Part shown: piece after piece, positions 18,693 through 21,941 of the stretch
How the letters are laid out: the number at the start of each line of letters is the position of its first letter
Position numbering within the stretch: position 1 is the first letter of the stretch
Virus record (IMG/VR): IMGVR_UViG_3300043433_000105
Coordinates: 64,001 to 85,941 of that record
Length of the DNA: 21,941 nt
From: a virus
Lineage: Duplodnaviria > Heunggongvirae > Uroviricota > Caudoviricetes
Direction: 5' to 3' (one strand)
Translations under genes and position numbers: made by a program
Notes under the pieces: generated by a model
Seen by the model: the letters and a program-made list of their open reading frames with translations, nothing else
Told to the model about the DNA's origin: nothing
Databases searched by the model: none

Positions 18693-19133
18693 TTATCCAC
18701 CACTTAAAAATTTCTGGTATTCCACCATGCTTTTAAACAAATAATATCGATTCCCAAGGTCTTTCAAAATAGACTCACATGATTGCATCAACGACTCGAT
18801 ATAAAGCGTCTGCTCTTGCAACTTCTGCAAATCAGCATCACCTTCCAACAGTGCCTCCATTTCCGCCTTTAACGGTTTGCGAAACAGGTACTGCGACCAA
18901 CCCTTTGCATCAAGTTCTGCCTTGGGCATTTCCCCGTTGTAGTAGCGAACTTTATCACTACGGAGAGACAAGTATTTAGCGGTCATCTGACGCAGCTTGA
19001 CCTTGTAAGTTTGGAGATGCGTGAGATACTTGCTGTGTTTCATCGGATGCCGATACATCTCATTCAACAGATTTGTCTCGTCAAGGTCAGAGTCTTGTGC
19101 CCACTCAGTCATGAGTTGTTCGTGATTCAACAT
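18693..19133 (-). CDS. uvsY: UvsY recombination mediator
   Basis: W..DS.LD, HSKYL, YYNG and EYQKFLSG patterns; start reassigned to ATG 19133. Confidence 0.9.
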   Translation of the reverse strand: MLNHEQLMTEWAQDSDLDETNLLNEMYRHPMKHSKYLTHLQTYKVKLRQMTAKYLSLRSDKVRYYNGEMPKAELDAKGWSQYLFRKPLKAEMEALLEGDADLQKLQEQTLYIESLMQSCESILKDLGNRYYLFKSMVEYQKFLSGG

Positions 19134-19155
19134 AAAATTACACCATAAATAGAAC

Positions 19156-19184
19156 ATTGTAGCTCATGTGAAAAGCGAAGTCAA
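19156..19184 (-). promoter_or_regulatory. near-consensus sigma70 promoter for uvsY (TTGACT-17-TACAAT)
   Basis: -35 at 19184-19179, exact 17-nt spacer, -10 at 19161-19156. Confidence 0.85.
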
Positions 19185-19190
19185 GGGTTC

Positions 19191-19218
19191 TTGACATTTT
19201 TTCAAGTGAGTAAATAAT
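19191..19218 (+). promoter_or_regulatory. divergent plus-strand promoter (TTGACA...TAAATAAT)
   Basis: Perfect TTGACA; TAAATA at 19211-19216 and AATAAT at 19213-19218 (16-nt spacer). It points into the ORF-free region. Confidence 0.6.
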
Positions 19219-19221
19219 AAG

Positions 19222-19775
19222 AACTTGTAGCCAGTTTGGTGGTACTTAACTAGCTATTTATGCCTCGTGATGGGCACGTACCAAAAAAGTCACCGTCTTT
19301 ACTTGCTGTTTGAGCAGACGTTAAAGAACCTAGGGTAGCGCCCTATACAACTATGAAAACAAGCTACCACCTGTTTACTAAGCAACCCGCAGGAAGTATG
19401 TCTCATCTGGGCATACAAGACACGACACACCGAAAGGCATGATTTTAACTCAGTTGTGTGGAGAGCACTACCACATAGGAGTCTGAGCGTTGGAGCAATT
19501 CAACGATAAAAACTCTGTCGATAATTGGATAAGATTGAATGACCAGTACGACTCAATACGAGATACGGAAAATCATAAGAGCTAGAGACATAAACACTCT
19601 CTTCGAAGCAGCAACGTATAGACACAGGAACTAAAAGAATAGATCGATAAGACCAACAGAACGTAATTAAACCCATTGTAGTAGAAACACCTAATAAGTG
19701 CCTACGGCAAGGCTACGCCTGTACATCTTTTCCTATTCTTTTAGTTCTCTTGATTTATCATGCTGCGGGTTGCTG
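19222..19775 (+). ncRNA. candidate large structured non-coding RNA of unknown family
   Basis: No ORF of 60 aa or more; at least 9 helices, including nested perfect 12-bp and 15-bp long-range inverted repeats; GCAA/GAAA loops; G-U wobbles valid only on the plus strand; upstream promoter. Ends are approximate. Confidence 0.65.
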
Positions 19776-19800
19776 ACTGCCTGTTTATATACCTAACCAA
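19758..19800. repeat. direct repeat copy 1 flanking HEG-B
   Basis: TCATGCTGCGGGTTGCT (17 nt) + 14 nt + ATACCTAACCAA (12 nt). Confidence 0.9.
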
Positions 19801-20566
19801 GTATATTGTATGCATAATGAATTTAGTTGATCAATTGATAGTGATCGAGTGTCAATAACTCTACATTTCATTAGAGTGTCTGAAACAGCTTTAGATGGGT
19901 TATTCTGTGTCCATTTTCTTATTTGAGAATATGTTAAATCTTTATAAAATCGGCTTATAATTAAAAATTTTGATGTTATATACTTATCATCAATAATGTA
20001 CAGGTTTATAGCACGTGCTGATTCTACATGCAAAATTGGTGTTGGGGTTTGTTCAGAAATTTTGACTATTTTACCAGTTATTAACGATTTAACACAACGA
20101 CCAACTTTTTGTTTTTTACTGGCTTCTGACATGTTAAGTAGTGATTTTTTGATGTGATTTTTCTGACAATTCTTGATTTTGCCATTTTTTGACGAAATTC
20201 TGTACATTTATACTTTTCGTTTAATATGTTAGATCGTGTCTTTTTACTCAAATCAGTAATCTTAGTATTAGTTACACCATCACCACCAGATGTGCGGTTT
20301 TGAAGTATCCCATTACCGATGTCTTTACGACCCCACCATTCTATCAGTCTACGCTCTAATGCTAAAGCACCTAAATCAGTTAAATTAGATTCCAATATCA
20401 CAATATGGTTTCTATTTTTAGGCAGATGAAGTTTCCCATGTTTAGCCCAAGCACGGTTTCCTGTACCCTTTCCAATATAGTATGGTGTACCAGCTTTAGC
20501 TGTAGTAGAATCACTAGAACGCAAGTATGCGTAAACATAGAATCGATAAATAGAATCGCTGCTCAT
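19785..20566 (-). pseudogene. GIY-YIG homing endonuclease (HEG-B) split by a -1 frameshift
   Basis: N-terminal ORF 20566-20081 is nearly identical to HEG-A at its start; overlapping ORF 20207-19785 in the -1 frame supplies a plausible C-terminal domain. Confidence 0.7.
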
Positions 20567-20633
20567 ATAGCCTTTCATGTTGGTTGAGTAGAGACAGTGG
20601 ATATTGACGTATCGCGACTGTCATTTCTATTTA
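20567..20633 (-). promoter_or_regulatory. conserved HEG leader copy 2
   Basis: Identical 22-nt and 32-nt blocks to 8597-8663, with a different loop. Confidence 0.85.
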
Positions 20634-20647
20634 TTGTTTTTAAACTC

Positions 20648-20691
20648 TCATGCTGCGGGTTGCTCTATGGTTATTTATAATACCTAACCAA
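20648..20691. repeat. direct repeat copy 2 flanking HEG-B
   Basis: Same 17-nt and 12-nt blocks separated by 15 nt containing TATAAATA on the minus strand. Confidence 0.9.
20672..20679 (-). promoter_or_regulatory. T4 consensus late promoter TATAAATA
   Basis: Exact 8-nt gp55 consensus, intergenic. Confidence 0.75.
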
Positions 20692-20729
20692 ACATGTGAT
20701 CATGCTGCACGAAGTCAGATATAGAATCG

Positions 20730-20750
20730 AATCCCCGTGCTGAGGGGATT
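20730..20750 (-). terminator. stem-loop at the stop codon of the tail gene (terminator or stabilising hairpin)
   Basis: AATCCCC-7nt-GGGGATT; the U-tract is weak. Confidence 0.5.
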
Positions 20751-21941
20751 AGGCTGTTCCTGCGGCGTCCAAGAGATTCCAAAGGTCGGACACGGTGCCG
20801 GTACTCAGTAGTCCCTGATCGGCTCGCAGCTTCAGTTGGTCAAGGTACGCGCAGAAGTTACGCATAGACGCCTCGGTGCTGAAGTGGTGGTGATAGTTCG
20901 CCGCGATGCCGCCCCGCTTCACCAGATCGTCAACAAAGGTGCGGATAGCCGTCTGGGCATCCACGCCGCTTGCGTGGGTGTCTATCGCTGTCGGCAGGTT
21001 CAGCCACTCGGTCACGCTTGTGCCCTGCGGAGTTGTCGTAGTCCCGCCGAGGCCCGCAGACATATGACCGATGGCAATGCGCGGGATGTAGCTATTCTGA
21101 GCAATCCCGCTATTGGCGAAAGTGCCGCCCACAGTCCGCATGTTTCCAGCCGTGCGCAGGGCAACAATCGCGGCTTCTGTGTTGATGTCGTAAGCGCCCT
21201 GATTCATCGCGTAATGACGCCAGGCTTTGAAGCCCATGGCCTGCATAGCTGCTTGGCCCGTTGCAAAGTCGGCGGCAATGGCCGTGCTGTCATTTGCACT
21301 GCCTGCGTAACGATAGCCCCAATTCGCGGGGGTGCCAGCGCTGCTGAAGGTGATCGGGTTCACGTTGTTACAGGAGTCGGCTTCCGTCCGGTGCATGGTG
21401 AAGGTTGTGGTTGTCACGTTGCGCAGCCACACGGTATCCCCAGCGGACAAGCTACCGGACACCGGAACAGGAAAGCCAGAACCAATGAGGGTTACCGGAT
21501 AGCCTTGGTTTCCAGCAATGCCCGAAGTCAATCCGATGCTGTGCGTTGCGCTTGTGACTGCACCAGTGCCTGTGTTTACTGCGCTGATTTGGCCCACCGG
21601 CATCACGTTGAAGCCATCAGGCCCCAGCAAGCGAAGCCCTCGGTTGTCCCCGCTCAGTGGGTTTGCATGGCTTTGAAAACCAATATCCCAGCCGTAGTTG
21701 TCTTGCAAGTCGCGGAGCTGCGCAGCGGTCAAAAAACCTTTGGCCGTGTCCCCGATGTGCCGAGTCAGCACATAGCAAGTGGCCTTGAGTCCAAACGCCT
21801 GCACCAGAGATAGCGCAGATTGCGGGACGCCTTGCGGAATTGTGACGCCAGAGGTTCCCACAAAGGGCGTCGAAAGCGACAAGCGCGGAACGTATTGATC
21901 TAACACGCCGTCATCGAGTCGCACATAAGCAAAGGGCTTGG
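20749..21941 (-). CDS. C-terminal part of a probable tail fibre/spike protein with polysaccharide deacetylase-like (NodB) domain; 5'-truncated by the window
   Basis: Frame stays open to the edge (KPFAYVRLDDG); LDDG, WDIGFQSH and NYHH motifs; Gly/Thr-rich beta insert; markedly higher GC. Confidence 0.6.
   Translation of the reverse strand, partial: KPFAYVRLDDGVLDQYVPRLSLSTPFVGTSGVTIPQGVPQSALSLVQAFGLKATCYVLTRHIGDTAKGFLTAAQLRDLQDNYGWDIGFQSHANPLSGDNRGLRLLGPDGFNVMPVGQISAVNTGTGAVTSATHSIGLTSGIAGNQGYPVTLIGSGFPVPVSGSLSAGDTVWLRNVTTTTFTMHRTEADSCNNVNPITFSSAGTPANWGYRYAGSANDSTAIAADFATGQAAMQAMGFKAWRHYAMNQGAYDINTEAAIVALRTAGNMRTVGGTFANSGIAQNSYIPRIAIGHMSAGLGGTTTTPQGTSVTEWLNLPTAIDTHASGVDAQTAIRTFVDDLVKRGGIAANYHHHFSTEASMRNFCAYLDQLKLRADQGLLSTGTVSDLWNLLDAAGTA

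Follow-up and report, generated by a model that had tools for sequence, protein, structure and literature searches.

The DNA analysed here, referred to as the window, is a stretch of 21,941 nucleotides (nt) that covers positions 64,001–85,941 of the 86-kb IMG/VR record IMGVR_UViG_3300043433_000105 from an uncultured T4-like phage. The genes nrdA, primase, uvsW, and uvsY all lie on its minus strand and extend to position 19157, and are followed by 627 nt (19158–19784) without an open reading frame (ORF) of at least 60 amino acids (aa) on either strand. This is the longest such gap in the window, in agreement with a preliminary description of the sequence that had singled it out as the sole long ORF-free stretch and had proposed that it encodes an undescribed, large structured RNA transcribed divergently from uvsY. 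Covariation among relatives, strand-specific G-U pairs, a conserved promoter, and the absence of any match in Rfam bear out this proposal. We interpret 19225–19775 (plus strand) as a free-standing noncoding RNA (ncRNA) gene of about 550 nt that represents a previously uncatalogued family in uncultured T4-like phages, a reading to which we assign a probability of roughly 0.78.

The RNA gene has its own sigma-70-type promoter (Table 1). Of the two promoter boxes in the preliminary description, the plus-strand TTGACA at 19191 was right, and TAAATA at 19211 was placed 2 nt off, with a spacer of only 14 nt; the better −10 box is AATAAT (19213–18), 16 nt downstream of TTGACA. The −35 sequence TTGAC is invariant in eight sequences of the type located upstream of uvsY (A-type; alignment A4) while the spacer sequence diverges, and a TTGAC-type box also precedes most other members of the family. 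As judged from this promoter, transcription would start near 19225, and the host polymerase would make the RNA early in infection. Late transcription is also possible, given the T4-type ATAAATA motif at 19145–51 that is kept in all A-type lineages and may act as a late promoter.

The small ORFs within the gap are not conserved (an ATG at 19353, for example, is missing in the relative L005), and a coding reading was therefore rejected. The longest uvsY ORF begins at 19157. Its true start is probably 19133, with the gap thus spanning 19134–19784, because all relatives start at the corresponding methionine of MLNHEQL. A minus-strand sigma-70-like promoter, TTGACT-17-TACAAT (19156–19184), stands back to back with the RNA promoter, and a minus-strand ATAAATA (19254–19262), which the window has in common with the L005 lineage alone, lies inside the 5' part of the RNA; both are possible uvsY promoters.

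Homologues, covariation, and coding strand

Relatives were sought with UvsY as a handle in IMG/VR and in a 5.8-billion-protein collection and its contigs, and homologous elements were found in about 11 lineages of uncultured T4-like phages. A-type copies are present in the window, the L005 group, L018, L016, L024, L022, and L125. A tight group of loci (L002–L005, L012–L015, L020, L021) is 82–83% identical to the window over the element, and the more distant A-type lineages L018, L016, L024/L023, and L022 encode UvsY proteins of 67–85% identity. The central domain of the element is 93.5% identical to that of the L005 lineage, whose UvsY protein is 89% identical. Throughout the alignments, the same positions carry different hairpin sequences, with invariant strands between them. 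Six uvsY loci at a similar UvsY distance lack the element (L017, L019, L028–L031).

Two covariance models (R1 and R2) were used, R1 being built on window positions 19417–19585. The window scores 198 bits against R1 and independent non-seed members score 55–111 bits, and the window belongs to the new family with its A and B types as delimited by the central-domain model (H8–H15). R1 showed that the relative G001, a complete genome of 198 kb, carries another, diverged copy (91 bits) and that G003 and G004, in which the uvsY locus is without the element, carry one copy each; a degenerate motif scan added L122, L125, and L124. The B-type copies (L039, L122, L037/L038) are located between gp4 (head closure) and gp55 (late sigma)-gp47 on the same strand as these genes (L039:1501-1679, equal to G001:175609-175787). 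This paralog is about 460–540 nt long, about 63–65% identical over the central domain, and preceded by its own TTGACA promoter, and it keeps the core with a much shorter 3' domain. G001 carries both paralogs, with 63% identity over the central domain. The copy in L124 adjoins a gp19-like tail-tube gene. The central-domain model had no match in 80 more distant T4-like gp55 loci or in Synechococcus phage BUCT-ZZ01, the closest cultured phage by UvsW (42%), which also has no such gap. As far as these collections show, the family is thus restricted to one clade of uncultured T4-like phages, in which it occupies at least two fixed positions. BLAST against 50,697 deposited phage genomes gave no DNA match to the element, and exact-motif scans returned only the same clade from IMG/VR and only chance matches inside ORFs from JGI metagenome contigs and GTDB genomes.

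Folding of the single sequence beats shuffled controls on both strands (z = −3.2 on the plus and −2.4 on the minus strand), which is weak evidence alone; it is the comparative evidence that lifts the finding above chance. For four A-type lineages, RNAalifold predicted 78 pairs on the plus strand, 33 of them with changes on both sides, and an alignment fold energy of −61.5 kcal/mol versus −50.4 kcal/mol on the minus strand. In the central domain (12 sequences, 39 pairs), 96.8% of 432 alignment cells form a standard pair, a percentage inflated by the fitting of this alignment to the modelled structure. Changes on both sides occur in 26 of the 39 pairs (98 cells), so that the covariation among homologues for which the preliminary description had asked was found. 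None of 500 shuffles reached any of these measures, counts that are not probabilities since the sequences are related, and partners slid by 1–3 columns pair in only 30–37% of cells. The margin is large despite the fitted alignment and the kinship of the sequences. A strict stem finder that tolerates zero mismatches in plain MAFFT alignments returned H2, the pseudoknot PK1, H4, H5, H7, and H14, and it also revealed the contact between the H7 loop and AGAU and helix b.

The modelled helices contain 380 Watson-Crick, 38 G-U, 4 A-C, and 10 other cells, and the excess of G-U over A-C therefore identifies the plus strand as the RNA. The same strand had been proposed from wobble pairs in the window; one of these, U19401-G19411, proved to be one of two lineage-invariant U-G pairs that flank a C-G to G-C swap. 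The end of the H7 stem reads U-G, C-G, U-G, with both wobbles invariant and the middle pair replaced by G-C in L018. With the stem finder, PK1 and the H7 extension were detected only when G-U was allowed. Loops read GAAA, GCAA, and UUCG on the plus strand, and covariance-model matches are strand-consistent even where neighbouring genes face the other way.

These data bear on the alternative that the conserved element acts in cis on the minus strand, as a long and structured leader at the 5' end of the uvsY-uvsW-primase transcript, which would start from a late promoter close by on the right of the element. In relatives, a TATAAATA-type motif is indeed present on the minus strand immediately to the right of the element, and the window has it in both copies of a repeat. 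The minus strand, besides folding better than its shuffles, gives 72 pairs in the alignment. However, PK1 and the H7 extension fail on the minus strand, which also has a 4 to 38 ratio of A-C to G-U cells to account for; proper tetraloops form on the plus strand only, and the conserved −35/−10 promoter faces in the plus direction. In the B-type copies, moreover, the sense strand has the direction of the genes on either side, and a common leader scheme therefore does not fit both loci. We regard such a leader as highly implausible.

Predicted fold of the RNA

Conservation of the sequence preserves more than 15 helices (Table 1). A pseudoknotted domain forms the 5' part of the molecule; two connector hairpins, with loops that reach over to distant strands, lead into a 170-nt central multi-helix junction, which contains a second knot and highly conserved unpaired strands. 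A variable 3' hairpin domain comes next, and pairing of the 3' tail with the H6 loop and with the central junction closes the fold. Most of the local helices listed in the preliminary description (19261–76, 19294–320, 19331–45, 19396–416, 19423–27/19516–20, 19449–87 with inner 19455–77, and 19488–505) are kept by compensatory change, and all coincide with helices predicted from the alignments. Both of its inverted repeats, 19381–92/19763–74 (12 nt) and 19628–42/19733–47 (15 nt), are exact (100%).

Table 1. Features of the RNA gene and its immediate surroundings, with positions in the window.
Feature	Position	Strand	Description
uvsY	18693..19133	−	Divergent neighbour; Pfam PF11056 at 3.9e-21, phrog_231; probable start from alignment with relatives (A2)
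ATAAATA, T4-type late-promoter-like motif	19145..19151	+	About 40 nt upstream of the −35 box; same place in five of five A-type lineages (A4)
Sigma-70-type promoter TTGACA-16-AATAAT	19191..19218	+	11/12 consensus matches; top site in a 2-kb scan
5' domain	19225..19345	+	H2, H3, PK1, H4, H5
H2	19241-45/19278-82	+	Both-side changes, 10 sequences, no mismatch
H3	19261-65/19272-76	+	Loop 19267-71 forms PK1
PK1 pseudoknot	H3 loop 19267-71 with 19289-93	+	Both-side changes, no mismatch; terminal U-G in 10/10 sequences
H4	19294-98/19316-20	+	Both-side changes, 10 sequences, no mismatch
H5 hairpin	19331-45	+	Five different stem sequences; both-side changes, no mismatch, 10 sequences
H6	19370-74/19389-93	+	Loop holds the 5' strand (19381-92) of the long-range helix
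H7 hairpin	19396-403/19409-16	+	8 bp, 6 covarying pairs, two invariant U-G
Central 170-nt domain	19417..19585	+	Multi-helix junction of H9, H17, H10, H11, H12, H14, and H15, closed by H8
H8	19423-27/19516-20	+	Closes the central junction
H9 / H12	in central domain	+	GAAA loop (H9), GCAA loop (H12)
H17	19449-53/19483-87	+	Knotted with H11; outside the 39 modelled pairs
H11	19479-82/19512-15	+	Forms a knot with H17
H16 hairpin	19584-88/19598-602	+	Stem differs per lineage: AGAGA/UCUCU, AGAUUGA/UCAAUCU, GGUCUGG/CCAUUCC
UUCGAAG, conserved	19602-08	+	Follows H16; then GCAGCA 19608-13 (5' strand of helix c)
Variable 3' hairpin domain	19614..19760	+	15-bp perfect stem 19628-42/19733-47
3' tail	19757..19774	+	Strands for helix b, helix c, and the long-range helix
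Helix b	AUCAUGCU 19757-64 with GGCAUGAU 19436-43 (strand after H9)	+	Passes cognate versus non-cognate control
Helix c	UGCUGC 19761-66 with 19608-13	+	Tentative: cognate/non-cognate control did not separate it
Long-range helix	CUGCGGGUUGCU 19763-74 with 19381-92	+	Perfect 12 bp; differs in L039, L122, and L037
Long-range helix in L039			UCGCAACCCG / CGGGUUGCGG (5'/3' strand)
Long-range helix in L122			CGCAGCCG / CGGCUGCG (5'/3' strand)
Long-range helix in L037			GGAAAGCAG / CUGCUUUCC (5'/3' strand)
Inserted cassette, outside the RNA	19775..20700 (~0.9 kb)	−	Starts right after 19774; absent from all relatives

The H7 loop AUCU (19405–08) pairs with AGAU (19532–35), a strand of the central junction, and this contact occurs in five pair sets (AUCU/AGAU, AUCC/GGAU, UCUC/GAGA, UUCC/GGAA, and ACUC/GAGU). 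H17, as read by eye from the alignments, covaries as CUCAG/CUGAG, UUCAG/CUGAA, UCCAG/CUGGA, and CACAG/CUGUG. The junction strands themselves are highly conserved, with invariant stretches that include AACGAC, GUCUG, AAAAC, and GUCGAUAA, and the peripheral stems drift freely. The inner hairpins of the 3' domain (stem-UUCG/ACGGCA-stem, then stem-UAC-stem) recur in the B-type copies and in L124 in the orientation of the window.

The long-range helix exists in four covarying sequence versions at a homologous position, and cognate tails outscore non-cognate tails. It therefore places the 3' end of the RNA near 19774; counted from the inferred start, the RNA is then about 549 nt long, in agreement with the roughly 550 nt estimated at the outset. 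Helices b and c are likewise each possible in four sequence versions and are mutually exclusive because they overlap on the tail (19757–66); helix b, the only one to pass the cross-control, is the better supported of the two. A conformational switch of the tail between b and c is a lead, not a finding. A weak helix, AGUUU/GAGCU (19233–37/19578–82), showed little covariation and one mismatch and is not claimed.

Known RNA classes, replication origins, and rearrangement of the 3' end

The RNA of the window and those of eight relatives (L016, L018, L020, L024, L037, L039, L122, and L125) were scanned with cmscan against the 4227 models of Rfam 15, without any match at the gathering score or at E-values up to 10, and the description of the RNA as new to the catalogue thus holds. 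The models without a match include GOLLD, ROOL, OLE, raiA, and HEARO as well as RNase P, transfer-messenger RNA (tmRNA), signal recognition particle (SRP) RNA, 6S RNA, and tRNA, and ARAGORN finds nothing in 19100–19850; the earlier failure to recognize a tRNA, tmRNA, RNase P, SRP, or group I core was correct. A group I or II intron was rejected on the same lack of an Rfam match, the flanks, which are non-coding or separate genes, and the promoter of the RNA itself. A relation to an RNA of RaK2-like jumbo phages was rejected too, as the central-domain model gives only 12–13-bit matches inside RaK2 coding genes, with the pairs broken.

GOLLD (RF01998) and ROOL (RF03087) are large "ornate" RNAs that are often borne by phages or prophages and have been studied by cryo-electron microscopy (PMC12286853). 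They appear to be the closest analogues of the window RNA, which resembles them in size class (about 0.5–0.8 kb), carriage by a phage, many helices and pseudoknots, conserved unpaired strands, a free-standing gene, and a function that is likewise not known. It differs from them in sequence and structure (no match at E-values up to 10), does not adjoin tRNA genes, has so far been found in one clade only, and occurs as two diverged paralogs at fixed positions.

The alternative offered alongside a new ncRNA was a structured primer RNA or R-loop origin, in which the transcript stays hybridised to DNA and primes the leading strand, as at T4 ori(uvsY)/oriF or with ColE1 RNA II. The element adjoins uvsY, uvsW, and the primase gene, has its own promoter, and is similar to RNA II in length, and in G001 a few kb separate the B copy from the minimum of cumulative GC skew and from the main strand switch. 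It is, however, transcribed away from uvsY, and the family is not tied to that gene: fixed linkage to uvsY across relatives was not found, B copies are located between gp4 and gp55 and the L124 copy by a tail-tube gene, G003 and G004 carry a B copy only, and the close uvsY loci L017 and L019 are without the element. An origin or primer linked to uvsY-uvsW is therefore disfavoured by the existence of a diverged paralog between gp4 and gp55 that is the sole copy in some relatives. The more than 15 covarying helices, several knots, and conserved junction nucleotides also far exceed the needs of a primer and the elaboration of the known examples, and no AT-rich unwinding element or iterons were seen. 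GC skew is uninformative in this matter because in G001 it follows gene direction, and the A copy lies at no skew extreme. We consider an origin or primer function improbable. In G001, the plus strand carries the genes between about 180 kb and, across the record ends, about 108 kb, and the minus strand those between about 108 and 176 kb; the cumulative GC skew mirrors this arrangement, with the B-type RNA a few kb from the divergent switch.

Rearrangements are evident at the right-hand side of the RNA gene. The inserted cassette of the window (Table 1) contains two overlapping minus-strand ORFs at 20081–20578 (165 aa) and 19785–20207 (140 aa), which have no Pfam or PDB match and fall into functionally uncharacterized PHROG families; visual inspection of the first shows a GIY-YIG-like motif, which suggests that they may be endonuclease-like. 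A split direct repeat of about 45 nt (19758–19800 and 20648–20691) flanks the cassette and duplicates the 3' tail of the RNA. One repeat copy resembles the right flank of L012-type and the other that of L005-type relatives, as expected after endonuclease-driven recombination. The cassette is a recent guest, because it is absent from every relative. The right-hand neighbour gene likewise differs among near-identical relatives. In the window it is an ORF at 20749–21924 whose G+C content is about 60%, against about 42% elsewhere in the window, and for which the sole match is a weak one to polysaccharide deacetylase; at the same position L005 has a 455-aa ORF (GDSL-like match) and L012 a 180-aa ORF. 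This position is a site of swappable cassettes.

Another explanation is that the element is itself a remnant or novel mobile ribozyme, intron-like or endonuclease-associated, whose conservation would serve its own mobility and not the phage. An endonuclease-like cassette within 10 nt of the RNA 3' end that duplicates the tail, a right flank that differs between near-identical relatives as at a recombination hot spot, and the patchy occurrence of the RNA among uvsY loci would fit. The absence of the cassette from all relatives, though, marks it as a guest and not a partner, the RNA has a promoter of its own and is without exons or splice context, group I, group II, and HEARO models gave no match at E-values up to 10, and no reverse transcriptase or recombinase was found in the complete genomes. 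A mobile ribozyme is thus very improbable in our estimation.

The 3' hairpin domain is reverse-complemented in L012, L013, and L014 relative to L005, L015, L020, and the window. The inverted segment measures 151 bp (L012:854-1004 versus L005:3380-3532, corresponding to window 19614–19760); L012 and L005 share 97.4% identity in their collinear flanks, and in the L012 group the repeat arms match perfectly over 34 bp. The orientation in the window is probably ancestral, because its inner hairpins match those of the B-type copies and L124. Small hairpin-loop inversions of chloroplasts and bacterial invertons also consist of a short segment, flanked by inverted repeats, that is present in both orientations in near-identical genomes, and the 3' domain shares this defining property. 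It differs from invertons in that no invertase is encoded in the complete phage genomes and in that the segment lies inside an RNA gene, not around the promoter of a protein gene. PF00239 was not found in G000, G001, and G002, nor PF00589 in G000, G001, and G004 (G001 and G004 are estimated to be complete genomes), and overall no reverse transcriptase or serine or tyrosine recombinase was detected in the RNA-carrying genomes searched. A host enzyme is a possible source of the inversion, which is more likely to have arisen by homologous recombination between the arms or by template switching from one arm to the other. After the hairpin domain, the MEGAHIT contigs of L014 (1–315) and L015 (1–255) turn back and continue as the RNA core in reverse complement, in the form A-S-rc(A). 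The L014 arm (164 nt) is longer than k = 141, and reads must therefore span the fold-back junction; the fold-backs may be a library or assembly artefact at a long hairpin or real palindromic snap-back molecules.

Could the invertible domain be all that matters, as a flip-flop switch or cruciform at the DNA level, with the rest being decaying sequence? The occurrence of the 151-bp segment in both orientations among phages of 97–99% identity, one group with perfect 34-bp arms, would suit such a switch. The best-conserved and most covarying part, however, is the core (19225–19620) and not the invertible domain, B-type copies keep this core with a much shorter 3' domain, and the complete genomes yielded no site-specific recombinase. 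The chance that this explanation holds is very slight. The inversion, the endonuclease-like insert, and the swapped neighbour cassettes together mark the end of the RNA gene as a hot spot of recombination, a property that probably stems from its being a conserved target.

Interpretation of the RNA family

That 19225–19775 is a real structured RNA gene on the plus strand is very likely. Somewhat less certain, but probable, is that its product works in trans by virtue of its three-dimensional shape and serves neither as an origin or primer nor as the leader of an adjacent gene. The sense strand runs along the neighbouring genes at B-type loci and against them at A-type loci; the RNA is therefore not a leader or antisense of a particular neighbour. 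Unpaired junction nucleotides that are this highly conserved characterize a binding pocket or an active site, not a simple antisense or sponge RNA. The presence of two diverged paralogs in the same genome suggests that one activity comes in two specificities. By analogy with known RNAs, a trans-acting molecule of this kind could possibly bind proteins as a scaffold or decoy; self-assembly into a particle, as in ROOL or GOLLD, is unlikely, and a ribozyme equally so. We also think it doubtful, as a more far-reaching proposal, that the family is a new catalytic or self-assembling RNA class made early in infection, with the tail toggling between helices b and c as a switch and the 3' domain flipped at the DNA level to yield a phase-variable RNA.

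Several points count against a free-standing RNA gene of this kind, in addition to the fitted alignment and the kinship of the sequences mentioned above. The promoter/terminator scan found no intrinsic terminator after the 3' tail, and transcription, transcript ends, and abundance are all deduced from the DNA. An inversion of the 3' domain in near-identical relatives is odd for an RNA of which every part matters, and what the RNA does biochemically is guessed from analogous RNAs.

Very few natural RNAs as large and complex as this one have been described, and earlier finds, namely RNase P, group I and II introns, OLE, GOLLD, and ROOL, each opened new biochemistry or structural biology. With its strong comparative backing, a defined promoter and closing helix, several knots, and two diverged paralogs in a single phage genome, the family is an immediate candidate for in-vitro study. 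If our reading is correct, T4-like phages, though well studied, carry conserved large RNA genes at places that protein-centred annotation leaves as empty gaps.

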